From assembly GCA_964016885.1 (NCBI GenBank), contig OZ024750.1, positions 36,704,001-36,768,000 on the forward strand: a stretch of 64,000 nucleotides of DNA, given 5' to 3'. Positions 3,574 to 62,482 of this stretch are shown here, in pieces. This DNA is from Eledone cirrhosa. Taxonomy: Eukaryota. The number at the start of each line of letters is the position of its first letter. The stretch's first letter is position 1. Position numbers and translations under genes: made by a program. Under the pieces are notes generated by a model. It made no database searches, was not told the origin of the DNA, and saw nothing but the letters and a program-made list of their open reading frames with translations.

Positions 3574-3768
3574 CACCTCCACGACCACTTTGCAGTGGAA
3601 TGATAGGGACCCCAGTCCCGATCATCTCATTTCTACAGCTGAGAAAACTGGAGCAATGTGAAATAAAGTGTCTTGCTCAAGGAAACAACACATCACCCGG
3701 TCTGAGAATTGAACTCACAACCTTTCGATTGCAAGCCCAATGCTCTAACCATTAAGCCATGCGCCTCC
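3574..3768 (-). mobile_element. tRNA-derived SINE family A, 5' part
   Basis: Reverse complement of the ggaggcgcatggctta.tggttagagc...gagttcaattctc...ccttgagcaagacacttt head. Confidence 0.85.
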
Positions 3769-3979
3769 ATATATAACAATACATATATATGAACGGTTAT
3801 ACAAGCGATGTAATAAGTGTTATACTATTTACGTTTAATCAAGAGCTACGAAATTTAGTAGATAAATTACATAATATTTATTCATTATTTATTCAAAGTA
3901 ATCCAACTTATTTTACTAATGGGATTAAAAATTATAAAACAGATGCTGTCCTGTATTCCTCCCTTTAATATATTATAGA

Positions 3980-5105
3980 TTGTTGTTTCTGTTAGAGTCA
4001 TGGTCACTCAACCATGAAAACCTGAGACTTTTTAACTCCTAATTGTTGTTGCTGTTAGAGTCAAGGTCACTCAACCATGAAACCTGTGACTTTTTAACTC
4101 CTAATTGTTGTTTCTGTTAGAGTCATGGTCACTCAACCATGAAAACCGGAGACTTTTAACTGTAAATTGTTGTTTCTGTTAGAGTCATGGTCACTCAACC
4201 ATGGAAACCTGTGACTTTTTAACTCCTAATTGTTGTTTCTGTTAGAGTCAAGGTCACTCAACCATGAAACCTGTGACTTTTTAACTCCTAATTGTTGTTT
4301 CTGTTAGAGTCATGGTCACTCAACCATGAAAACCGGAGACTTTTAACTGTAAATTGTTGTTTCTGTTAGAGTCATGGTCACTCAACCATGGAAACCTGTG
4401 ACTTTTTAACTCCTAATTGTTGTTTCTGTTAGAGTCAAGGTCACTCAACCATGAAACCTGAGACTTTTAACTGTAAATTGTTGTTTCTGTTAGAGTAATG
4501 GTCACTCAACCATGAAACCTGAGACTTTTTAACTGTAAATTGTTGTTTCTGTTAGAGTCATGGTCACTCAACCATGAAACCTGTGACTTTTTAACTCCTA
4601 ATTGTTGTTGCTGTTAGAGTCAAGGTCACTGAACCATGAAACCTGTGACTTTTTAACTCCTAATTGTTGTTTCTATTAGAGTCATGGTCACTCAACCATG
4701 AAACCTGTGACTTTTAAACTCCTAATTGTTGTTTCTGTTAGAGTCATGGTCACTCAACCATGAAACCTGAGACTTTTTAACTGTAAATTGTTGTTTCTGT
4801 TAGAGTCATGGTCACTGAACCATGAATCCTGTGACTTTTTAACTCCTAATTGTTGTTTCTGTTAGAGTCATGGTCCCTCAACCATGAAACCTGAGACTTT
4901 ATAACTGTAAATTGTTGTTTCTGTTAGAGTCATGGTCACTCAACCATGAAACCTGTGACTTGTAAACTCCTAATTGTTGTTTCTGTTGGAGTCAAGGTCA
5001 CTCAACCATGAAACCTGTGACTTTTTAACTTCTAATTGTTGTTTCTGTTAGAGTCATGGTCACTCAACCATGAAAACCTGAGACTTTTTAACTCTAAATT
5101 GTTGT
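3980..5105. repeat. 62-bp minisatellite, ~18 copies, with internal hairpin
   Basis: Unit ttgttgtttctgttagagtcatggtcactcaaccatgaaacctg(t/a)gactttttaact(cct/gta)aa, no spacers. A solo monomer-like copy lies at ~3268-3306. Confidence 0.95.
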
Positions 5106-5464
5106 TTCAATTGTGGTCGCAGTCACCCAACTGTGAAAGTCGAAGACATGTTTAACACTAAAGTGTTCTTAATTTTCTTCTGAAATATTGTTTCACAGGC
5201 AGCATTATCTAATGCATCCAATTATTCAATGATATACTGTGATTTGGGTTTGAGGGCAATTCAGCAGCTATTTCTAGTAGACCAAGGAATTTGTAGAGGT
5301 TCTTTCAATGGTTCATTGCCTTCTTTTTAAGTAGGAGCAATTGGTGCTATGGTTTGCCACTGTAAGAAATACTAAGACTGGAACTGGTATTTTTTGTGAA
5401 CCACTAATTGTGATACTTTGTGGTACTTTGTGTTGTAAGGAAATTTACCTTACAGCTCAATTAA

Positions 5465-5975
5465 CCCTTTATCATTTACATTACTCTATATATACTATTG
5501 TATTTTCACAGTAAAGGCTTTACCTCACATAATATCTCACATAACATTCACATTACTCTATATATACTATTGTATTTTCACAGTAAAGGCTTTACCTCAC
5601 ATAATATCTCACATAACATTCACATTACTCTATATATACTATTGTATTTTCACAGTAAAGGCTTTACCTCACATAATATCTCATATAACATTTACATTAC
5701 TCTATATATACTATTGTATTTTCTTAGTAAAGGCTTTACTTCACATAATATCTCACATAACATTTACATTACTCTATATATACTATTGTATTTTCTTGGT
5801 AAAGGCTTTACCTCACATAATATCTCACATAACATTTACATTACTCTATATATACTATTGTATTTTCTTAGTAAAGGCTTTACTTCACATAATATCACAT
5901 CTATAAGATTGTGATATTTATTTTGAGAACAATACCTTAAGATCAGTATGAGCGGCTGGTTATGGCCCGTTTGTA
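5465..5975 (+). mobile_element. piggyBac-like MITE (family D) with an internal 72-bp tandem expansion (~6 copies, 5474-5895)
   Basis: Starts TTAA-CCCTTT and matches MITEs at 15511, 15951, 30280 and 35462. The 72-bp unit produces the repetitive 5498..5914 ORF. Confidence 0.75.
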
Positions 5976-9922: not shown

Positions 9923-10245
9923 TGTGGCTTAGTGGTTAGAGCATTGGCCTTGCAATCGAAAGATTGTGAGTTCAATTCTCAGACCGGGTGATGTGTTGTT
10001 TCCTTGAGCAAGACACTTTATTTCACATTGCTCCAGTTTACTCAGCTGTAGAAATGAGATGATAGGGACTGGGGTCCATATCATTCCACTGCAAAGTGGT
10101 CGTGTAAGCGCCATGGCAAAAAAGCACCCAGCACTCACTGTAAATGAGGTTGGTGTTAGGAAGGGCATCCTGCTGTAGAAATCAAGCTAAAATCAGTTGC
10201 CGTCCCACCCTTGCAAGCAGGGATAAGCAGACGTAAAATGATGAG
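9923..10245 (+). mobile_element. SINE family A, near full length
   Basis: A-box tggcttagtgg, B-box gagttcaattc, ccttgagcaagacacttt core, RTE-type tail ending cgtaaaatgatga. Confidence 0.9.
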
Positions 10246-14159: not shown

Positions 14160-14498
14160 CATCATCATCATCATTTTACGTCCGCTCTTCCCTGCTTGCA
14201 AGGGTGGGACGGGAACTGACTCTGGCTTGATTTCTACAGCTGGATGCCCTTCCTAACACCAACTTCATTTACAGTGAGTGCTGGGTACTTTTTTTGCCGT
14301 GGCGCCTACACGTCCACTTTACAGTGGAATGATAGGGACCCCAGTCCTTATCATCTCATTTCTACAGCTGAGTAAACTGGAGCAATGTGAAATAAAGTGT
14401 CTTGCTCAAGGAAACAACACATCACCCGGTCTGAGAATTGAACTCACAACCTTTTGATTGCAAGGCCAATGCTCTAACCACTAAGCCATGTGCCTTCA
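14160..14498 (-). mobile_element. SINE family A, full length
   Basis: Reverse complement of family A including the (GAT)n tail. Confidence 0.9.
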
Positions 14499-15158
14499 TA
14501 GTATAGAATTTATCAATTGACAGCAAGTCGCTACATACATAGATTACCATGGGCCCCCTATCCTCGTGGGTCCCGGGCAACTGCCCAGCGTGCCCATGCA
14601 TTTAGACAGTCTGCCCCAACTATGGGTTAAATAGCCTCAACTACCCACAATTGGCCAAGCGTGGTGAGTACAGCTACACCCCTGAACACCTGACCAAAAC
14701 TAAACAGAAAGCAGTGAAGGTCAACCAAGGAGGGGTTTGTGGTTCCGCCAACAGGAGCGAGAAGACCCAGGATTGGACTGGATATGTATGTATGTATATA
14801 TATGTATGTGAGTACAGCTACACCCCTGAACACATGACCAAAACTAAGCAGAAAGTGGTGGAGATTAACCAGGGAGGGGTTCTTCCAACAGGAATTAGAA
14901 GGCTCTGGATTCGATCTCAAATAAAAATGAAACATTGGCTATTACAGTCTGAAACATCTGAAAACCAAGATTGGGAGGGAAAACTTTTTGTCATTCATGG
15001 GTTTACATAATCTATTGGTTGTGCTGTAAGTGATGATGATGATGGTGGTGCTCGTGGTGGTGGTGTAAGTGATGATGATTATGATGATGACAACAACGAT
15101 AATCATAATGACAAGGACGATGATGATGATGATGATGACACAGTGGTGATGACCACGT

Positions 15159-15510: not shown

Positions 15511-15894
15511 CTCTTTAGCATTCATATTTTTTTTATATATATGCGGTGGATTGGCAGTATCGGTAGAGGGTCGGATGCCATGCTTTCCAGCATAGTTACG
15601 TCCCTTTATGATCTGAGTTCAAATCCCGCCGAGGTTGACTTTGCCTTTCATCCTTATGGGGTCGATAAAATAAAGTACCAGTAATGCACTGGGTAATTGC
15701 TGGCCTTGTGCCTAAAGTAGAAACAATTATTTTATATATACTATTATATTTTCATGGTAAAGGCTTTCCCTCGCTTAATTATCTCACATAATATCAAATC
15801 CATGAGACTTTGAAATGAGAACAATACCTTAACATCAGTTTGAGTGACCAGTTACAGCCAGTTTCAACAGAAAAAGGTAGAGAATTCTGGCCGG
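15511..15894 (+). mobile_element. piggyBac-like MITE D interrupted by SINE B (15543-15730)
   Basis: TTAA-ctctttagcatt start, TTAA end; SINE B flanked by ttttatatata duplication. Confidence 0.7.
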
Positions 15895-19035: not shown

Positions 19036-19329
19036 GCAAAAGTTCTATTTAAAACTGATATATATTGTATTTTGTCTGATGAAAGCATACCATAATTTAA
19101 CATGGTATCCTTGAAATATGTATAATAAAATAGATATGGTTTTATAAATATAGTTTCCATTTTTTAATATCGTATATATATATATATATAATTATATATT
19201 TGTGTACAGATATTTTTGTATACACAATAACAAAATATAAACAAACATATTTATTTTACAAGGCGCGATAAGGATAAATATATAAGAACCCTAGAGCAAA
19301 TCCCAAGCAACGCCGGGCCATTCTGCTAG
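18601..19329 (+). mobile_element. Non-autonomous Helitron-like element containing an HHR element insertion
   Basis: A|TC 5' end (tctaaaacagagaatgtctgtc), subterminal ccc..gcaacgccggg hairpin, CTAG|T 3' end, no TSD. Confidence 0.7.
19068..19132 (+). ncRNA. Minimal type I hammerhead ribozyme motif (family H1)
   Basis: tattttgt CTGATGA aagcataccat-loop-atggtatcctt GAA ATATGTAT A ataaaata: 8-bp stem I, near-palindromic stem III, AUA triplet. Confidence 0.65.
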
Positions 19330-21831: not shown

Positions 21832-22434
21832 CACTGATGAGGGACTCATTTTATAACATGTAATCCATGTGCAACCATGCAGTATTCTTCTCCCCATATT
21901 TTTCACATATATTTACCTAAACTGCAATTCTGTGTTTCTCTCTTTCTCTCTTACTGCTCCCTCGTTCTCTCTGTTTCTCTTACTTTCTTTCGTCCCCTCT
22001 GTCATGTCAGTTAACACTTTCTCTCTACTGACCTCTTCCTCGCACTTCCACTCACTCACTCTCTGTTTCTCCCCTTCTTACCTCCTCCCGTTCGCTACGA
22101 AAACGATTTTCCTTCTTTCTTACATCGGATTCACTAGCGGAAGGTCTGTTTCTTACTCGAACATGTATTCAAACAGCTTATACTGACAGAATAACCATGT
22201 TGCTTGTGTTTCTTTCTATCTTTGGTTAGCTTTCCCCTGTGTTGTTTACTTGTCTCACTCGCTTTACGCGTTTCAATTGTCCTAATAACTTATTTTAGTT
22301 ATTATCGCACCAACGTGAGGTATATGATTTTTAATGCGATGAAATACCAATGATCGTTGGCAAATCACTGATGAGGGACTCATTTTATAACATGTAATCC
22401 ATGTGCAACCATGCAGTATTCTTCTCCCCATATT

Positions 22435-23857: not shown

Positions 23858-25352
23858 TTCTTTGAGTCTCAGTCATTGATGTTATTTAAATGGAAAGTTT
23901 GTTGAAATGAATATCAAGCCGCTACCTGCAGCCTCAGATATTCAGGACGTATTGGAGGGTTCTTGCTGTTCCCAGCAAGCATGCCTTTTGAAGTGTTCCA
24001 AAAAACGGGGCGGGACCAATTTTCTTTAACCATCCTTGGAAACTCTTTGAGATAGTACCTAGTGCGCCTATGACAATCGGGACCACTTTGACTTCATGGC
24101 AGTTCCAAATCCTTTTTACCTCCCACTTTAAGTCCTGGTATCGGTTAATTTTCTCCCTCTCCTTCTCTTGCACTCTTGTATTGAATGGGCAGGCTAAAAC
24201 CACAATCAGACACAATCTTTTTTCCTTGTCCAAAACCACCAGATCAGGTCTGTTATGTTCCAGTTTCTTGTCCGTCTGTATCCTAAAATCCCACAGCACC
24301 TTCACCTGATCGTTTTCTATTACCGACTCTGGCTTATGCTCATACCACTTCTCAGAATGTGGTAAATTGTTTACTTTGCATAGGTGCCAGTGGATCACCC
24401 TGCCCATCACATCATGTCTCCAGCCTTTATAGTGAGTCTGGGCTAGGTGTTTACACTTGGATACAATGTGAGCCACAGTCTCCTCTCTCTCTCTCCACAG
24501 ATCCTACACAGTGGGCTAGCCTCCTCCTTGTAAATATGGTGTTTCAGCCACTTCGTTTTGAGGGCCTGCTCTTGCGCAGACATTAGCATTCCTTCTGTAG
24601 CCTTTTTAAGGTCTCCTCTTTTCAACCAGTTCCATGTCTGTGGATCTCTGAATTCAGTTTTCTCAAAGAAGGTACTATGAAGGGATTTTTCATGAAGGTT
24701 GCTCTTTCTCCTTGATGTTATTTCCTCCTTGGACATCCCCTGGTCTACTGTCCTCTCCTTCAGTACAATTCTGAGCATAGGCTCCCTACTATCAGTCACG
24801 TATTTGTGTAGGTTGTTTTTCTCCATCTGAACACAGTCCTCTATGCTGATAAGACCTCTTCCACCTTCAGATCTCCTTAAGTAGAGTCTATCAACATCAC
24901 TCCTCTTGTGGAAATGTTGTAGATAGTCAATAGCTTCCTAGTCTTCCTATCCATTTCTTTTTGTTCAGCAACATTCCATCTCAGAATTCCCGCACTGTAC
25001 CTAATAATAGACACAGCTCGGGAATTTACTGCACTTATAGCATTCCAACTGTTCAGATGGGATCTTAATACGCTCCTTACTCTCTGAATGTATTCAGATC
25101 TTATCAATTCCTTTATTTTTTGTTCTTGATATCACAGCCTCCAGAACACCTAAATATTTGTATCCTTCTTCAGTGTCAATTTCCTTTATCCTCTCACCTG
25201 TTGGTACCTGGATTCCGTTGCTTCTGCTCAATTTACCCCTCTTCATCACAAGGACTCCACACTTACTAATACCAAATTGCATACATATATCATTGCTGAA
25301 AATACGGACAGTGTCAACAAGTACATCCAACTCCTTCTCACTCTCACTCTTC
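23858..25352 (-). mobile_element. 5'-truncated R4/Dong-clade RLE LINE (end of RT, CCHC finger, restriction-like endonuclease), frameshifted
   Basis: FGISKC, YKYLG, CRICG...HIVSKC, RHD, WDFRIQTD...NRPDLVV...KINRY, PIVIGALG, QKACLLGT across ORFs 25094, 24877, 24443 and 23934; both ends lie in (TAA)n. Confidence 0.9.
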
Positions 25353-27177
25353 TTCTTATTATTATTATTATAATTATTATTATTATTGTTATTATTATAT
25401 ACATACAGAGACAAATATAAATACATATATATATATACATGCATATAAATATACACACACAGGCTCATATATATGTACACGTATATGAACACACACAGAC
25501 ACATATTCTTTGTAGAGTTGGAGAAAGGAGTGTTTAACTATAAAACTACCCCCCTACCAACCATCCATACACCTAAAAAAAGATACAAAGTATGAGTATG
25601 ATATTCAAAAGTTTATATGTGTATAACATGTTTCCAGTATGAGAAACCTTAACAAAGAGACTTATGTAACAAATATCTGTCATGGTGTAATATTTTCTCC
25701 TAAATGTTCAGAAGTAGACCTAGCTAGAAACTGAAAATAAAATAATATATTACTGAGTAAACCAATTTATTGAGGATTACTACAAGAATGTTTTATTAGA
25801 GTGAAGCAAGAATTTGGTGTTGTACTAGTCCTGACAATAAAAATAATTTATTATCTTGGATTCACCAAGTACAAAAGTAGAAAGAGCAATAAAATTATAT
25901 TTATTGAGTTCAGAAAAATAACATGAAACGACCTCCTAAAATTATTTGATCTTAATTTGATCATTACTGTTATGACCTTAACCAAGATCAAGGCAGTGAA
26001 ACGAAGTCATATTCTATAATATGAAGAATAAATCTTTATGATTAAAGTAGATATATAATATGAATGTCAACTTGTAATATTTTTATAGATCTAATTTTGC
26101 ACTTGTATTAGTACACAGACTATTGGAAAATGAATGTAATATTTGTAAATGCAACAGATCATTAATTATTTAACATCAAGCCAGAAAATGTTTCTAATTA
26201 GATTTTATGGTAATTCTTTTCACATCTGTAGCTGTTGAACTGGATATTTCCATAAAAATAAACTAACATTCTAATAGAAGGAAATAATGAAGTATGAAAT
26301 TAAAATGAAAATATTATAGCTGACGCATAAAGAAAAATATTTTGGAGGAAATCAATTTGAATAATTTATTGATAGATATCAACAATCAATTTTAATTGAA
26401 ATGGCAGTTTTATTTTCAGAATTATTCATTTTCCATTTTTCTTTAATTTTTGTAATGTTTATGCGTTACAGTGTTACAATTGAAAAATATTTCTTAATTA
26501 AAAAGTCATACAGTTGTGTATATATTAGAAATACAGGATATATTACACTTTCTCAGTTGATTAATATTATAATTTCCATAGAAGTAAAAGAGTAATGATG
26601 CTAATGACTAGTTTCATTGGCTGACTGCAACAATCCAGTCATTTGCTCAATAAATTGCCCACACAATGTAGCTAGAAGAGAAATCTGTAATGAACCAATT
26701 GAGAATTTTTATCATGTCTGCTTTCATTCTTTAATGTAATAGAGAGATAAAACCTGTCTAGTTAGTCGTTCTACTAGCTTTATACAGTTATTCACATAAA
26801 TCTATAAATCGGAACAAAACCTTTATAGTACAGTATTATTCTAGCTTCTATTTCACTCCATATATTATCTTACAAATACAAAATTAGTTAACTTAAGTAG
26901 AAATCTACCTTAAAATGAATTATGCAATGTGAGCAGAAATATAAAACTAAAGGTCAACAGTACAAATAGTTTAGCTTTTAACATCCTGAAATGATTTAGC
27001 AGTAAAATATCTAAAAAAATGTTTTCCTAATTGAAACGGTTCATATTTTTATTGGTGGATAGATTGTTGGGGAAATTTGTAGTATTAATGAAAACGCTTT
27101 AATATTTAATGGGATATATTTGACCTGAGCCCATCCACTGCCCAGTCATGTAAAGGTTTAAAGGACTCTTTAGTTGT

Positions 27178-27528
27178 ATCATCATCATAATTTTACATCC
27201 GCTTTTCCCTGCTTGCAAGGGTGGGATGGGAACTGATTCTGGCTTGGTTACAGTGAGTGCTGGGTGCTTTTTTTTCCATGGTGCCCACATGTCCACTTTA
27301 CAGTGTGGGCTGGGTGCTTTTGTTTTGCCGTGGCACCTCCACGACCACTTCGCAGTGGAATGATATGGACCCCAGTCCCTATCATCTCATTTCTACAGCT
27401 GAGTAAACTGGAGCAATGTGAAATAAAGTGTCTTGCTCAAAGAAACAACACATCACCCGGCTTGAGAATTGAACTCACAACCTTTCGATTTTAAGGCCAA
27501 TGCTCTAACCACTAAGCCATGTGCCTCC
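27178..27528 (-). mobile_element. SINE family A
   Basis: Consensus match with a small internal duplication and deletion. Confidence 0.85.
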
Positions 27529-28006
27529 ATCATAGACATGACAAATGCCCCTAGTGGTCATGTGCACCCAATACATACTGTAACATGGTGATAAAAGGGC
27601 ACCTAGCCATAGAAAACTTGCTAAACAAAAGGCCTGGAGAACTCTTCATGTATCAAAAACATCACAACATCTCTAGATTTGGTGTACATTCAATACATGC
27701 TGTAAGATCCAGATATAAAAAATCTGCTAAACAAAAAGTTCAGGACTTTTAATGTGTGTCAAGGACATAACAACACACCTAGTGTTGGTGCCAATTATAA
27801 ATGTTCCTGGCTCACCTGGAGGTCAGTGGTTTTGCTTGAGTATTGATTGGTCAATGATAGGACATCTAACCTTTGCTAGCAGGGAAGGTGGGACGCTTAA
27901 AGATGATAGTGATGATGATGACAATAATCTTGAAGTTGTATTTAGACACAGCAGTAAACTCCTTCAACTCCTACAATCAGCACCGAATTTGCCATTGTGC
28001 TTCTAA

Positions 28007-39270: not shown

Positions 39271-39524
39271 TATATATATATATATATATATATATAAGAA
39301 GTCTGCATACATTTGTCATTTATATTTGAGAATGATATGCAGTATACAACTCTGAATATTTTATTTAGGTCCCATTCTAATATTTCTCAAATCTTCATAA
39401 ACTAAAAAAAAAGTTATATGGTAGTATAAATATATTAAATACTGAAATATTTTATAGAAACCTTCATAGTTTTGTCACAGTGAATTGCATGAGTTTATCA
39501 GGCAGTCCTTGTCTTCAAACCATT

Positions 39525-40230
39525 ATTCTACATACACAAACACTACAACAGTTCTTGTATAATACTCTCCTACACAAACACTACAACAGGTCTTGTATAA
39601 TATTACCTACACAAACACTACAACAGTTCTTGTATAATACTCTACCTACACAAACACTACAACAGTTCTTGTATAATATTACCTACACAAACACTACAAC
39701 AGTTCTTGTATAAGACTACCTATACAAACACTACAACAGTTCTTGTATAATATTACCTACACAAACACTACGACAGTTCTTGTATAATACTACCTACACA
39801 AACACTACAACAGTTTTTGTATAATACTCCACCTATACAAACACTACAACAGTTCTTGTATAATACTCTACCTACACAAACACTACGACAGTTCTTGTAT
39901 AAGACTACCTATACACACACTACAACAGTTCTTGTATAAGACTATACCTACTCAAATACTATTACGTTGGTTCTTGTATAATATTCTACTATATAAATAC
40001 TGTAACAACTTTTCTTGTTTAATATTCTACCTGCACAAATAATATTACAATGTTGCTTGTATAATATTATACCTACACAAACACTACAACAGTTCTTGTA
40101 TAAGACTATACCTACACAAGTACTATTACATTGGTTCTTGTATAAGAATATACCAACACAAGTACTATTACATTAGTTCTTGAATAACACTCTACCTTCA
40201 CAAACACTATAACTGTTCTTGTATAATATC
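39525..40230. repeat. ~38-41-bp minisatellite (cctacacaaacactacaacagttcttgtataatact)
   Basis: Many tandem copies, degenerating toward the right. Confidence 0.9.
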
Positions 40231-41353: not shown

Positions 41354-41504
41354 TATATATATACATTTATTAAGGCTAAATAGTGAGTGTTGTTACTCTA
41401 GAGTTTCACCTTTTTATCACAAAGTCATCAGACAAGAACTAATTCTTTTCTCTCAGCCAGCAACCCCATATGGATATATATACATACATATGAATAAAAT
41501 GAGT

Positions 41505-41572
41505 CCTTCATCAGTGATCTTCCAACCTTCATTGGTATTTCATCGCTTTAAAGATCATATACCTCTGGTTGG
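41505..41572 (-). ncRNA. Candidate permuted (pseudoknotted) hammerhead ribozyme
   Basis: Minus strand: ccaacc-aga-GGTAT-A-TGATCTT-taaagcgat-GAA-ATACC-aatgaa-ggttgg-AAGATCA-CTGATGA-agg. Confidence 0.65.
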
Positions 41573-41992
41573 TGCAAGCAACAGCTAAAGAAAGTCATTG
41601 GGACACGTAAATAGGGGGAACGAGCGAGACAGTAAACACACAAACAAATATGGTAATGCAACGAAAAGTGAGGAAGAAGGAGTCAAGTCCCTGAAATCGA
41701 TGAACATAAGTTCTGTGAAATCGTAGACGAGAGAAAAAAAGACCATCCAACCTGGTTACATACATGTATATATTATATATATATATATATCCTTTTTTCC
41801 CTTTTCTCTTTCTTTTTTTTCCCTCTTCCAACGACTTAATTTAAATATACTGTTATTTAAACCTTTCCAACACTAATTTGCATAATAAACCAACAATAAA
41901 TCTAATTGCTCCACTATCCAGGAGACTCTAACCCTGAAGGTTGCATTTTTTCAGGGTATGTCAATATTTATTTATAAAACTAATCTATATTA

Positions 41993-50739: not shown

Positions 50740-53519
50740 TATATTATACTTTAGATAAAGATGAGATGATACTTGTGAAAGATAAACAGAGGATAAAGAT
50801 TAAGTGGCAGTACAAACTCAGCATTACTACTCCAGTGATACAGGCCTGAGCAGAGTGTGTGTGGGGGGGGGGGGGGCATTCACTCTTGTGTATATGAACC
50901 CAGCCCGGTCTCAGTAAACAGCAGAATAGAGAAGACATTACCCTGGAGGATGGTGAGAGAGACATGTTGGAATAGTCATTCCAACTCACAGGGCTTGCTT
51001 CAGCATATAGCAAACTCCATTCTGATAGTTGTGAGTAGAGATGTGGCTATAATATGTGCAAAGTGCCAGAAGTCTCCACTGCTACAGGTTATACCCCAAA
51101 CTTATTGGAGAGTAACCAATATTTGGGAATGTGATGATCATACTTTGAACACTATTGATTATCAATCTGCTCCATTGATATGACTTGCTGCTAAATCGCC
51201 TCTTCCTCTTTCTTCTTCTCCCCCTCCTCTTCCTACTTCCATATGAATTAGTCTCAGGCAGCCTGTTGTTGTTCTTCTGACTGAGATCAAAGATCTGCGA
51301 TCAGTTTCAAGGAACCACTGAGAGGAGGACAACAAGCTTGTGGAGCCCTGCTGCTAAATAACAACCAGTTATCTATGATGAATACAGAAATAGGAAAATA
51401 TTTTAATATTTTTATAAATTTGAAATTTTTACTTGACATCAAACATTCAAATTATTCTTCATTTTCTCCGATATCTATTCATTGAAATCTGCCTCTCACA
51501 TCAATATCAAGTACGGTAGTTAATTTAAATGATAATAATCTCACACAAATTTTAAGCTATCATGAAAGCAAAGTAGAAAATTAACTCAAGTTTTTGAAAA
51601 GTCATATTTCCTCATGCTTAAATAAGTAACAAGGTTTTGCTAATCAAATTGTAATGAATGAATAACAAATATCATGCTTAAATATGATACTGAAATAGCA
51701 TGTCTGTATTGTTCAATTTATGAAAGGGTAACCAATGTGTGATTTGATAAATAAAATGATAGAATGCATAATTCACACATTAAACAAAACCAAAATTCAA
51801 TATATATGAGCTTTTATTGAGTTAAAGCTACATTACAAACATTTGTCATGAAATTATTTATATATATATATATATGTGTGTGTGTATACATATCATATAT
51901 ATATATATATATGTGTGTGTAGCAAAGAATCAGGGTGCAACAGCTGAGCTCTTGCAGTTTCAACAGACAATTCCAGTAGATACTAGATAAAATACAGGTA
52001 TCCGCTTTTTGTAGGCAACCTTACTCTTTTGTATTGTAAGGTGGATGGATGCATTTAAATATATGTGTATACACACACACATACACACACATATATATGT
52101 GTGTGTGTGTGTAAAATGACAAAAACTTATTACAATCCAGTAGTTTTCTTTTCTTATTTATAGAAACCTTTTATTCATTATACCTTCTTAACATGGCATG
52201 ATTAAAATGAAATGAGAAGATCATTTCTAAATTATTATCATATTAAAGTTCTGAGCTTCTAATGTTACAGTGTGATTCTGAAAGGATAAAATTCAACTAT
52301 TTAATTTTGTATGAGCAATCACTGAATGATAATGAGCTTTCAAATAGACATTAAGCTATTCACTAATAACTGCATTCACCTGAGACTGGAATTCATGTGA
52401 CTATCTTGTTAATTTAATGGTTTTCAAACAAAAATATAATTTAAAGTTATCTTGTACAAATGGCTGGTTGTAATTATAAAAAACAAACACACATACTTAT
52501 GTATATGTGTATTTATTAAATGCAAATAATAAAAATGAAATATTTGTTTAAATTATCTTTAGAGACTCATTACAATACATTTGTATAATAATATTTTCTC
52601 TAAAATTGGTTTGAATCACAATTTCTCTTCTATAGCTCCATATTGTATTCATTTTAAAATTAAATTTCATGCTTTGTCTCCCAAATGAATATATGAGGTT
52701 CAAATTTAAAATATTGTCAAAAACTTATCCTTTTATAGAAGAATATTCACGTAGCCTTTTATAGAAGAATATTCACAATATTTAATCCTATCATCAGCCA
52801 ATCAGAACTTACAAACATGAACACTAATGTAGAGATACCCACTGAATACATAACCAAATTAGTGTCATTGCTTTCAGAAAACTTTGAATCTAAAAAATGT
52901 ATGAAACAGGTAAAAAAATGCAAAAAAAAATTAGATATGAAATTCATTAAATTTAGCAACCTGAGACAGTAGAATATCTTCAGAGTTGACACATCATCTA
53001 ACCCTGTTAGTAAACTCTGTGACTATAATAATGGCTTATACATATCTCCAATACAGTCTACCTAGCTTATAAAAGAGTCTCTTTATCGTCAGTTACACTA
53101 CGTGTAAGGATAAAGGATAAAGATCCCGTAACTCCTTGTGGAGTTGTAGAGCCACCGTCAAATGACGTGTCTAGGGCACTATTTAAGCTGGCGGAGCCCT
53201 ACCCTCTCTAGGTCTGAACACAGTCGATTTGTTTCTATATAGGAAGAATTGACCCCAGTACTGGACTGGTACTTTTTATATTGACCTCAAAAGGATGAAA
53301 GACAAAGTTGACCCCAACGGGATTTGAACTCAGAGATTGCAATGAGGTAGGATGAATACCATAAAGCATTCTATCTGATGTCTTAATGGCTCTGCCAATT
53401 TGCTGCTAACAGACAAATCTCCCTAAAATTAGCCCTGTTCTTTGCTGTCGTAAAACAAAAATGAGATGCCATGGACAATATAATCTTAGATATATGGAAT
53501 GACAGAACAGTCACAAAGA

Positions 53520-53919: not shown

Positions 53920-54390
53920 ATACTGTGACACTGACTGTAGATTAGTTGAGTGACTGACTGCGTTCATTGGTAGTTTAGCTGTTATACTACAGTGTGACAT
54001 ACACTGCATTTATTGGCAGTTTAGCTGTTATACTACAGTGTGACACAGCCTGCATTTGTCAGTAGATTAGTTGCTGTAATATAGTGTATCACAGACTGCA
54101 ATTGTTTACAGCTTATTTGTTGTAATACAGTGTGACACAGACTGCATTCATTGGCAGATTAGTTGTTACACTACAGTGTGACACAGATTGCAATTGTTTG
54201 CAGCTTAGCTGTTGAAATACAATTTATCACCGACTGCATTTTTTTTTGCAGTGTGACACAAGCTGTATCTCTCAGTAGATTAACTGTTAGAATATAGTGT
54301 ATCAAAGACTGCAATTATTTGCAGCTAAGCTGCTGCAATTCAGTATTTCATAGGCTGTATTCATTGGCAGATTAACTGTTGTAATACAAT
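53920..54390. repeat. Degenerate ~40-45-bp tandem repeat (cagtgtgacacagactgcatt..gcagattag.tgtt)
   Basis: About 10 imperfect copies. Confidence 0.75.
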
Positions 54391-54904
54391 GCTTTAGTGA
54401 ATCCTGCAAAATATTTTGAATATAAAAACCATTCAGAATAATTTCCATGTCCAAATCTACCATATGCTGCTGACAGTGATCATCTTAATCTTGATAAATC
54501 AAAATACTTGGCTGAATCCATATTATTGTAATGTTCTTATTTAGGCACTCATATTTTACTTTGCAATCTATCATGAATCTAAGAAGTGTGTTTATCTTCA
54601 ATATTGTCAAATGCTGTGAATGTTAACATATATGAAAAGATAGTATCACAGCTATCTACTGTAGTTGACAAGAGTGTATTATTGCAATATATGATATCAA
54701 AACATATTATATTTTTACCATTATGTCACTGGTTTTACAATGTAATATTAGAGACGTAACATCATGTAAGTAGATTGTACTTTTATGGAGACAGATTTCA
54801 TATGTTACAAAAATACACTCTCTATAAACACTTTTATGATTATTTCTTTCCATAATCATTATATCACAATAAAATCATCCCAGAGTTAGTATGTATGTGT
54901 ATGT

Positions 54905-56020
54905 GTAGTAGACAACTGACGAAGGGGAACTGACCATCTCTTGTTTGTGTTGCCTTACTTTCTAACACTCGTTATCAGTAACCACACAGCCTCATCTCCC
55001 TCAATCCATATTTTTGTGTGTATATATATATATATATATCATACATGCACACAGCCAGACACACAAGGCGGTGGATTGGCAGTATCGGTAGAGGGTCAGA
55101 CACCATGCTTTGGTGCATAGAGTTATGGCACTTGCCATTCTGAGTTCAAATCCCGTCGAGGTTAACTTTGCCTTTCATCCTTACGGGGTCGATAAAATAA
55201 AGTACCAGTAATACACTGGGTAATTGCTGGCCTTGTGCCATAAGTAGAAACAGTAACCACACAGCCTCATCTCCCTCAATCCATATTTTTGTATTTACTA
55301 CTGTGACCTTCGCTACATCCGCTCTACCTATCTCGCTTGATTTGTTTTTCCTGGTCCGACTTATATCTTGCCACTCTTTTGGATCAATTCCTTCCCTTTC
55401 TCTCATCTCCATTTCTCTCTATCGATCTCCGCTCATTTGTTGATCTTGGTTGCACCTGCGTCGTGCCACCCTTTTGGATTAACTCCCTTTCCCTCCTCCT
55501 CCCTCCCTCTCTCTATCCCGCTTACTCACCTCCTCTGCCTTCTACCCTCCTCTCGCATCCTGTTCCTCCGTCTTTCTCTCTGCGCTCACTTTCACTGAGA
55601 ATAGACGTGTTTACTTAGCTCTGCTGTTATTATGGCCCCTGGGCTTAAACCCAATGGCTTTTTTTAACTTGGTCTTATTTCTTCTCATTTGCTTACTTAC
55701 ATGTGCCATTGTCCTGTATTACCCCCTTCTATCGGTATGCTTTCTTCTTTTTTTTTTCACTTTTTTTCTTCCTTTTTTCCATCTCTCTTTTTTTCTTTCT
55801 TTCTCTCTCTTCGTTATCGCTTCTTTCCCTCATAGCTTTTTGATAGATAAAAGGCTAAGGGAGCACTACGGATTGATGTATTGTCTATAATGCGCTGAAA
55901 CATCTGTGACCCGTAGTAGACAACTGACGAAGGGGAACTGACCATCTCTTGTTGTGTCGCCTTACTTTCTAACACTCGTTATCAGTAACCACACAGCCTC
56001 GTCTCCCTCAATCCATATTT
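54905..56020 (+). mobile_element. Non-coding Penelope/retrozyme-like element with ~108-bp terminal direct repeats; SINE B inserted at 55067-55252
   Basis: gtagtagacaactgacgaagggg...caatccatattt at 54905 and 55913; pyrimidine-rich body; TG/TA microsatellite flanks. Confidence 0.65.
55866..55933 (+). ncRNA. Candidate permuted (pseudoknotted) hammerhead ribozyme, GUA triplet
   Basis: ctacgg-att-GATGT-A-TTGTCTA-taatgcgct-GAA-ACATC-tgtgac-ccgtag-TAGACAA-CTGACGA-agg. Confidence 0.7.
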
Positions 56021-56042
56021 GTGTGTGTGTGTGTATATATAT

Positions 56043-59141: not shown

Positions 59142-59234
59142 ATATATGTAAAGTTATATTTAAAATTGTTGGGTTACAACTAGTAAATATTTATAACTGA
59201 TATAAAAGCACTCGACAAATACTTGGAGTATATT

Positions 59235-59630
59235 TACAATATTAAATAAATGGAAAACTATATTTATAAAACCATATTTATTTCATTATATATATTTCGG
59301 GGATATCATATTAACAATATGCTATGCCTTCATCAGACAAAATACAATATAAACAGTTTTATAGATAAATATATTCGACATACCGTAATAAACATCAACT
59401 TCATTTGAAGAGGTTTACTCTAGCAGTAAAGAGGTTTACTGCTAGAGTAAACCTCTTCAAATGAAGTTGATGTTTATTACGGTATGTCGAATATATTTAT
59501 CTATAAAACTGTTTATATTGTATTTTGTCTGATGAAGGCATAGCATATTGTTAATATGATATCCCCGAAATATATATAATGAAATAAATATGGTTTTATA
59601 AATATAGTTTTCCATTTATTTAATATTGTA
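59235..59630. repeat. Fold-back with 196-bp arms and 4-nt loop; each arm carries an H1 hammerhead (59279-59344 minus, 59521-59586 plus)
   Basis: 59235-59430 is the reverse complement of 59435-59630; tattttgt CTGATGA...GAA ATATATAT A atgaaata. Confidence 0.9.
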
Positions 59631-59648
59631 TATATATAATATATATAT

Positions 59649-60980: not shown

Positions 60981-61485
60981 TATATATATATATATATATA
61001 TTAATTCAAAATATTAACAAAAATAGACATTCGTGTGATCAAGTATATTTTATTATACATATTTCAAGTATATTTTATTTTTACATATTAATAACTCCGG
61101 AAAACCATTTGTTGAGTGCTTCCAATCTATTGTAAAACTCATTCTTTGATTTATTCATTGAACCTTGTTTAACCTTTAAATATATATATATAAAAACAAA
61201 TAACGAAACGAAATTAAATTTCGTTTCGTTTGTAACTCACTTTTGTATGACTGACGCTTAAACAATTAAGTTAAAGATGTACATCCATATATGTATACTG
61301 AAATACTAGTATGTATATGAATACACACACGTATGCATATGTAGATGTACCAAGTTTTTTCCCTGGTCACTTTACTGTGAGTGGCCAGCTATTCTGTATG
61401 TAAACACACAGACAAACCGGTTTTTAGAGTCATACTGGTTTTTGAGGAAACACCTTTCCTCTATTCCCCACAAAGCCAGACAAGG

Positions 61486-61530
61486 AATATTGAACTAGTT
61501 TCGTTGTTGTTACAACTCATCAGCAATATT
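61486..61530 (-). ncRNA. Type I hammerhead ribozyme
   Basis: Reverse complement of 61965-62009. Confidence 0.8.
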
Positions 61531-61964
61531 TACCTATCTTCCGGCCTCTCTAGAGAATCGTAAAAGCACATATCGTTATATGCTTTTTCTATGAAAATTA
61601 GTAGTGGGCAGACTAATTTGCATAGAGTGTGAGTAAGTACCGGTTCAACGGAGACGATAAAAACAAATAACGAAACGAAATTAAATTTCGTTTCGTTTGT
61701 AACTCACTTTTGTATGACTGACGCTTAAACAATTAAGTTAAAGATGTACATCCATATATGTATACTGAATTGTTTAAGCGTCAGTCATACAAAAGTGAGT
61801 TACAAACGAAACGAAATTTAATTTCTATTTGTTTTTATCGTCTCCGTTGAACCGGTACTTACTCACACTCTATGCAAATTAGTCTGCCCACTACTAATTT
61901 TCATAGAAAAAGCATATAACGATATGTGCTTTTACGATTCTCTAGAGAGGCCGGAAGATAGGTA

Positions 61965-62009
61965 AATATTGCTGATGAGTTGTAACAACAACGAAACTAG
62001 TTCAATATT
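61965..62009 (+). ncRNA. Type I hammerhead ribozyme
   Basis: aatattg CTGATGA gttgt-aaca-acaac GAA ACTAGT T caatatt: 7-bp stem I, palindromic stem III, GUU triplet. Confidence 0.8.
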
Positions 62010-62228
62010 CCTTGTCTGGCTTTGTGGGGAATAGAGGAAAGGTGTTTCCTCAAAAACCAGTATGACTCTAAAAACCGGTTTGTCTGTGTGTTTACATACA
62101 GAATAGCTGGCCACTCACAGTAAAGTGACCAGGGAAAAAACTTGGTACATCTACATATGTATACGTGTGTGTATTCATATACATACTAGTATTTCAGTAT
62201 ACATATATGGATGTACATCTTTAACTTA

Positions 62229-62482
<254 letters not shown>

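Follow-up and report, generated by a model that had tools for sequence, protein, structure and literature searches.

A predicted hammerhead ribozyme of reversed strand order, opened beside A9, in non-coding retrozyme-like units of Eledone cirrhosa

Hammerhead ribozymes of types I, II and III share the cyclic order C-G-S of their three strand blocks. Eckert et al. (2023; PMC10085705) defined these blocks as S, G and C and described natural ribozymes of type SGC (HRIMA-1 and variants) that cleave at 0.007-0.19 per min. In their account all four helices are needed, constructs carrying a single type SGC ribozyme cleave co-transcriptionally, and CUGANGA is assumed always to be followed directly by its stem II strand. 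The type SGC ribozymes presented there come from metatranscriptomes only and type CSG is represented by two metagenome sequences, RefSeq 85 also having been searched. A paper from 2026 (PMC13725137), where it treats alternative permutations, cites only Eckert and Forgia. Among Penelope-like elements (PLEs), the Naiads are described by Craig et al. (2021; PMC8557442) as having no canonical hammerhead, some of them being flagged 'HHR_core' or 'half_core' and fitting no descriptor; their absence from Naiads has been used to suggest that hammerheads may be mere parasites of PLEs. The Naiad reverse transcriptases (RTs) are reported there as dead in cephalopods too.

The window analysed here is a 64,000-nt stretch of the Eledone cirrhosa genome in which an initial annotation had picked out a candidate pseudoknotted hammerhead near position 55866. 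The whole ribozyme, a copy of what we call family A, occupies 55860..55931 on the plus strand in the block order IIa-Xa-IIIa-site-Ia-IIb-GAAA-IIIb-Xb-Ib-CUGANGA-10.1. Its upstream stem II strand, IIa (55861..55865), pairs with 55891-95 (80.5% of cells paired across copies, double changes in 3/5 pairs) and is followed by the 5' strand of helix X, the 'clamp' (CTACGG, 55866..55871), whose partner is CCGTAG at 55911-16 (88.9% paired, double changes in 5/6 pairs). The segment 55875..55880 contains the stem III 5' strand GATGT (55875-79), which pairs with ACATC (55900-04), and ends in the GUA triplet with A55880 unpaired (92.8% paired). Next comes 55881..55890, made up of the stem I strand 3' of the site, TTGTCTA (55881-87; 87.4% paired), and a 3-nt linker as in published type SGC. 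Block G (55891..55904) holds IIb (55891-96), GAA (55897-99) and the stem III 3' strand, and the 3' part (55911..55931) holds Xb, the second stem I strand TAGACAA (55917-23), the core CUGACGA (55924-30) and A55931. Stems I and III and the extra helix were already placed at these coordinates by the initial annotation; all are found there, and the extra helix also covaries across copies. The hammerhead core (CUGANGA, GAAA and NUH with U16.1-A15.1) is present, and cleavage is predicted 3' of A55880. As annotated, the strand order falls outside types I, II and III (the cyclic order C-G-S is not found and a scan for S-G-C matches), and the reading of this order as a pseudoknotted hammerhead is right. 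Standard descriptors do miss the motif: no ribozyme in Rfam was matched by the whole window at the gathering threshold, or by 55200-56030 at E<=10. A type I reading through a GAAA 3' of the core was rejected; it exists in family A only, has no stem III, and the GAAA is missing from families B and C. Nested minimum-free-energy folds of the copies are alternative hairpins. The topology had been put forward as undescribed; the order S3-S2-S1 is that of type SGC, published with cleavage in 2023 (PMC10085705), and the strand order alone is therefore not undescribed.

A descriptor scan for S, GAAA and CUGANGA in order, with stem I >=5 and stem III >=4, found three S-G-C sites in the 64 kb, whose predicted cleavage nucleotides are 22324(+), 41558(-) and 55880(+) and whose spacings are identical; 30 dinucleotide shuffles contained 0.07 sites on average (3 vs 0 and 2 vs 0 at stricter cut-offs). 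This bears out the earlier observation that the same layout and spacings recur at 22310 and 41505, the latter copy lying on the minus strand. The second full ribozyme (22304..22375, +; subfamily B2) has a perfect 6-bp upstream stem II and belongs to a partial tandem, with a further core 534 nt upstream at 21834; the third (41507..41578, -; subfamily B1) sits in a 5'-truncated element at 41485-41757. B1 is the youngest subfamily sampled, its copies being 95-97% alike. No fourth full copy was found in the window by profile search, and the 5'-truncated partial copies have their cores at 54916 and 21834. The genome-wide scan for the layout that the annotation had proposed was carried out on 3.0 Gb with the pattern GTA-N16-GAAA-N23-CTGANGA and gave 912 matches vs 57 for the reversed control, a lower bound; among the matches listed, a few arose by chance or come from a type I family with no relation to the motif. 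DNA searches returned 645 first-look candidates for family A and 2501 for family B1, of which 40 each were scored. Three families are distinguished, A (the 55866 copy), B (the copies at 22310 and 41505) and C, with many subfamilies, and compensatory changes in every helix separate the subfamilies A, A2-A5, B1-B5 and C.

The weak point of the initial annotation was a stem II of only 1-2 bp (ag/ct), and on this it was wrong: 5 bp come from the strand just 5' of the clamp, 55861-65, and one pair only from downstream. The hexamer ahead of GAAA is complementary to the hexamer that immediately precedes the clamp; examples are ATCGCA/TGCGAT at 22310, ATTGCA/TGCAAT in a sister copy and GGCGCG/TGCGCY in family A. 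The terminal upstream pair is not kept (33%). From the other side, A55931 is able to pair with U55896 (10.1-11.1), and across copies this position is 83% paired with four pair types. When a 6-bp stem II is instead drawn from the strand after the core, 51% of it is paired, which, the first pair excepted, is background (37-50% for slid helices). Stem II in the Eledone genome is the 10.1-11.1 pair from the 3' side plus about five pairs from the 5'-most strand, and it closes on GAAA through the upstream strand and that one downstream pair. At 55862 the 55866 copy itself has A in place of the C found in most family A copies; its stem II therefore contains one A.G mismatch, and the duplex comes to -2.8 vs -8.2 kcal/mol in a typical family A copy.

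Covariation was assessed on two sets. When the loci were extracted in a fixed register, 116 distinct matches were obtained. Of these, 97 were kept and 19 dropped before counting, 5 because they had no relative and 14 because their 5' part was not homologous; alignment A1 contains 42 copies from ~27 sequence clusters and excludes L084 and L085, a type I family that is kept in the 97-row set. On A1 the five-helix model has 87.3% of cells paired, with 19/24 pairs changed on both sides, and the covariation score is 0.646 vs 0.253 for shuffled and 0.08-0.15 for slid helices, a comparison uncorrected for kinship and made with a structure derived from the same sequences. For two of five covariation measures, the ones that count pairs or types, the shuffles came too close for a clear difference (51/500 and 26/500). 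The split between upstream and downstream stem II also holds on the 97 fixed-register matches. Covariation across genomic copies, the check that the annotation had asked for, is thus seen on 42 copies, in counts that are not phylogeny-corrected. Core invariance in A1 is circular because the copies were chosen with a core-fixing pattern. In loci picked by BLAST, and so biased to similarity, the core deviates less than stems and flanks in family A (1.9% vs 6.2% and 7.3%) and in B1 (0.3% vs 2.1% in stems and 1.1% in flanks), and it is intact in 21/26 family A and 28/29 B1 copies. From the comparison of copies, the motif is a real, selected hammerhead fold, and a predicted ribozyme, in a new setting.

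Two published ribozymes, SGC-1 and SGC-3 (from the oligos in PMC10085705), have the same helices and the same 3-nt Ia-IIb linker, with an extra U between A9 and G10.1. As the helices and linker are shared and IIa-Xa stands at the 5' end, the motif is a circular permutation of type SGC, opened at A9/10.1-10.2; completion of stem II by the upstream strand makes the separation from published SGC a real one. No published description of an opening at A9/10.1-10.2 was found in the literature outside subscription journals. PLE hammerheads conserve an extra nucleotide at the A9/10.1 junction in the account given in PMC4209133, and the junction is therefore tolerant. A metal site is made up of the A9 phosphate and G10.1 (PMC7151607) and would presumably be kept without the covalent link.

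The 55866 ribozyme lies in a family A unit at 55253..56018 (+) that is non-coding and pyrimidine-rich, recurs with a period of ~733 nt and ends at a (TG)/(TA)n tract; it contains no ORF with a recognisable protein. A 5'-truncated upstream copy of the unit (54905..55017, +) begins in Xb, with its core at 54916, to form a partial tandem; between it and the rest, at ~55060-55252, lie a (TA)n tract and a SINE. Copies share up to ~500-590 nt upstream of the ribozyme, have variable 5' ends and end 20-100 nt past the core in (TA)n or similar tracts. The shared sequence stops where the 3' end of the previous unit starts, which defines a closed non-coding unit. Unit or tandem spacing is 706-780 nt in A, ~515 in B1, 534 in B2 and 380-480 in C, and several copies are present in 30 of the 129 loci with a profile match, 16 neighbours being inverted. 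These are the insertion traits of Penelope-like elements: 5' truncation, partial tandem and inverted copies, and a microsatellite target. As in retrozymes, the units are tandem, non-coding and equipped with one ribozyme each; that ribozyme is not a type I hammerhead. At none of the copies examined was there an RT ORF within the A, B or C units, or an ORF with an N-terminal GIY-YIG and RT upstream. The annotation's suggestion of a retroelement family as carrier is sustained by the Penelope-like ends and the tandem or inverted, (TA)n-flanked units; it left the carrier unnamed, and the evidence points to Naiad PLEs and their non-coding derivatives.

The window is rich in other hammerheads and repeats. 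CUGAUGA cores with a downstream GAAA occur at 19076, 31059(-), 31147, 42001, 44489, 59336(-)/59529, 57510(-), 30793, 32672 and 45950; most are apparently canonical type I PLE hammerheads, some having been folded by eye. A perfect inverted repeat at 59229-59636 is a head-to-head pair of type I PLE hammerhead ends, and at 61192-62236 there is a 411-nt perfect inverted repeat of a 466-nt tandem unit bearing a type I hammerhead with palindromic stem III, an ordinary retrozyme family that is also found in L084-L087. A tRNA-derived SINE of ~300 nt is present at 9925, 21170, 41017, 56052 and 59649 and, on the minus strand, at 3574-3775, 14290-14500 and 27323-27530, three copies scoring above the Rfam tRNA threshold. 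An interspersed repeat of ~190 nt occurs at 15543, 18216, 30390, 34751, 35150, 48627, 55067 (where it splits the family A tandem) and 60213. Minisatellite arrays with periods of 61, 62, 72, 37-39 and 46 nt occupy 657-1327, 3906-5198, 5398-5973, 39505-40229 and 53944-54391, and stop-free stretches at 50743(-), 24503-25537(-), 8804(+) and 60701(+) resemble, by eye, fragments of mariner/Tc1 transposases and non-LTR retrotransposons.

The same fold appears in published Naiads. The contexts of exact CTGA[TCGA]GA matches in 54 Naiad consensus sequences (PMC8557442 supplement) were read by eye, a procedure that misses motifs split by line breaks. Non-circular hammerheads were recognised in this way in 18 of the 54 consensus 3' UTRs, 11 of the A9-opened form, 6 CSG and 1 SGC. 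The A9-opened form is placed by sequence header in Acropora (three), Morbakka-2, Pomphorhynchus, Octopus (two) and Euprymna (stem II weak), and by file order in Beroe (stem I only 2 bp), a Clytia element and Paralithodes, its hosts thus being a ctenophore, cnidarians, an acanthocephalan, a crab, octopus and squid. CSG occurs in nematode Naiads (Nippostrongylus three times by header, three more nematodes by file order), and the single SGC Naiad, with a hairpin in the linker, is probably from a spider. In 11/11 of the A9-opened Naiads, 11.1 finds no pairing partner in the base after A9; in 10 of them a G-C pair is provided by the upstream strand instead, so that there the break lies inside the core. 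The other 36 of the 54 consensus sequences had no match or no motif that could be parsed by eye; matches in ostracod, bivalve, hemichordate, fish and several chelicerate Naiads were not foldable in this way, and a search of the supplement for cores of the U3.A8 type gave nothing parsable. Ostracod and some chelicerate Naiad ends in the supplement have a conserved CCCC-CUGACGA in structured context that is not foldable as a hammerhead, and hemichordate Naiads have other structured terminal motifs in common that may be a different ribozyme. No report of non-circular hammerheads in animals or Naiads was found in the literature outside subscription journals. Family C contains a 19-nt stretch of the Naiad_Ovul ribozyme, identical at 3 loci and present at 39 when <=1 mismatch is allowed, vs 2 in the control; the tie of A, B and C to Naiad rests on the common fold and this short similarity between family C and Naiad_Ovul. 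A pattern with the Naiad_Ovul spacing (N13) was set aside, its 258 matches (45 in the control) being, among those listed, mostly other families or chance.

In the Eledone genome the Naiad RTs are all decayed, with 93 matches of <=74% identity, most carrying stops; a degenerate PMGGNCSP motif had no match in the genome and YWIPK had one. When 4.5 kb downstream was scanned, 11 of 20 RT remnants had an S-G-C hammerhead on the same strand. The remnant-linked subtype is distinct from that of the 55866 copy, its core being UUGAUAA (U3.A8), its linker containing a hairpin and its helix X standing at the 3' end, and it resembles the spider-like SGC of the published Naiad consensus. Among 37 copies the site is GUC in 24 and U3 occurs with A8 in 31. 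U3.A8 can stand in for the C3-G8 pair. Stem III is paired in 88% of cases, stem I in 90% and helix X in 86% (4-59% for slid helices), which is complementarity and not covariation because only one family is involved. The subtype has 1110 first-look candidates genome-wide, with loci at L235:2645-2768, L237:2428-2557(-), L197:3759-3874 and other G000 loci, and the profile for families A, B and C does not detect it. A family C copy beside the RT remnant in L197 was considered as the linked ribozyme and rejected as a separate insertion.

A PLE with C-terminal endonuclease, with 51,312 candidates genome-wide, was also considered as the carrier. In 20 loci the lone complete SGC match and a second family B core lay in inserted family B copies, and this carrier was rejected; in 15 of the 20 a canonical type I hammerhead lies ~1.1 kb past the ORF. 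In L121 and L139, family B (an inverted piece, then a sense copy) is joined to the ORF of this PLE, ~13 nt apart and with short microhomologies. Only one junction of this kind is independent of the query (1/19). These junctions may reflect template switching and thereby indicate the mobilising RT, and the element is a candidate, if a weak one, for the helper of the young family B1.

Taken together, the evidence makes it probable that the motif is a monomeric hammerhead of reversed cyclic order (the SGC/CSG/GCS class) opened beside A9, that it is the 3'-UTR/pLTR ribozyme of Naiad Penelope-like retrotransposons, and that families A, B and C consist of retrozyme-like units, ~380-780 nt long and non-autonomous. 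The ribozyme would have the four helices of type SGC (I, II, III and the bridging X) on a chain opened next to A9, with the upstream strand supplying even G10.1 in the Naiads of other animals. Tandem transcripts would be cut 3' of the NUH site by the monomeric ribozyme to yield unit-length RNAs, perhaps circularised, and a Penelope-type RT would copy these into (TA)n targets. Counting against this reading, none of the family A, B or C copies was found to adjoin a Naiad ORF, the Naiad remnants of this genome bear another subtype, and B1 is young though the Naiad RTs here are all decayed. The same decay is what would be expected had the fold been real in ancestral Naiads and the non-coding families, the 55866 copy especially, survived as inactive relics copied passively; that copy is mismatched in stem II, and single copies carry neutral-looking mutations. 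The compensatory changes between subfamilies, found in every helix, indicate selection during diversification, and with 28/29 B1 copies core-intact we regard the relic reading as unlikely.

A simple type SGC ribozyme, in which the nucleotides after CUGANGA provide a stem II of 1-2 bp and the upstream pairing is an accessory or serves as an off-switch, we consider quite unlikely. In its favour, the first downstream pair is genuine, covarying among A-U, G-C, G.U and U-A, two downstream pairs are possible in family A, and the terminal upstream pair is poorly kept; against this, pairing at downstream positions 2-6 does not rise above background, every subfamily shows 4-6 bp with the upstream strand, double changes included, and in the Naiad consensus sequences, as read by eye, the base after A9 cannot take the first downstream pair at all. 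A motif functional only as an intermolecular or tandem dimer, rebuilding ordinary three-way junctions like minimal type I PLE hammerheads, would suit the tandem copies common in the Eledone families and the dimer requirement reported for metazoan PLE hammerheads (PMC4209133). Stem III here has 5 bp and is not palindromic, unlike the short self-complementary stem of dimeric PLE motifs, helix X and the fixed linker lengths suit an intramolecular fold, units lie 380-780 nt apart, and the published constructs with a single type SGC ribozyme cleave on their own during transcription (PMC10085705), all of which renders the dimer very unlikely. Chance complementarity, for which only the AT-rich, repeat-rich context speaks, is refuted by the shuffle, reversed-pattern and slid-helix controls and has a negligible probability.

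The monomeric, A9-opened reading places in animal genomes, at high copy number, a class formerly known from anonymous environmental sequence only, and the opening breaks its discoverers' assumption that CUGANGA stays joined to its stem II strand. This reading also revises the published view of Naiads as devoid of hammerheads, and if Naiads keep a ribozyme in another topology, then a ribozyme looks like a general need of PLE retrotransposition. Because standard descriptors and Rfam miss these motifs, censuses of invertebrate ribozymes and retrozymes are undercounts. We lean slightly towards a wider reading, in which reversed-order hammerheads would be an ancestral hallmark of Naiads in at least 6 phyla, with openings SGC, CSG and A9-10.1, a dispensable link between core and stem II, and active 'permuted retrozymes' in cephalopods; if true, this would give the reversed-order class its first genomic home and biological role.

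Compared with known systems, the 55866 motif has in common with type SGC the S-G-C order, helices I, II and III, a bridge between I and II (helix X here corresponding to the stem I-II interaction helix of type SGC), an intact core and a length of ~70-80 nt. The 3' end, after CUGANGA, is where IIa and Xa stand in type SGC, whereas in the 55866 motif they stand at the 5' end, ahead of the site; the multi-bp stem II and bridging strand directly 3' of CUGANGA that define type SGC are not found in the 55866 family. Canonical PLE hammerheads of the minimal or type I kind, as described in PMC4209133, are separate, with C-G-S order, palindromic stem III and dimer dependence. The window families share with Naiad PLEs (as reported in PMC8557442) the (TA)n targets, 5' truncation and partial tandem and inverted copies, as well as the fold seen in Naiad consensus 3' UTRs, and unlike autonomous Naiads they lack an ORF. 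Non-LTR retrozymes (Cervera and de la Pena, 2020, as cited; bioRxiv 10.64898/2026.07.22.740005) are likewise built of tandem units that code for nothing, derive from PLE pLTRs and have a single hammerhead apiece; those described in these sources, found with type I descriptors, are all type I, whereas the units of families A, B and C carry the reversed-order fold.
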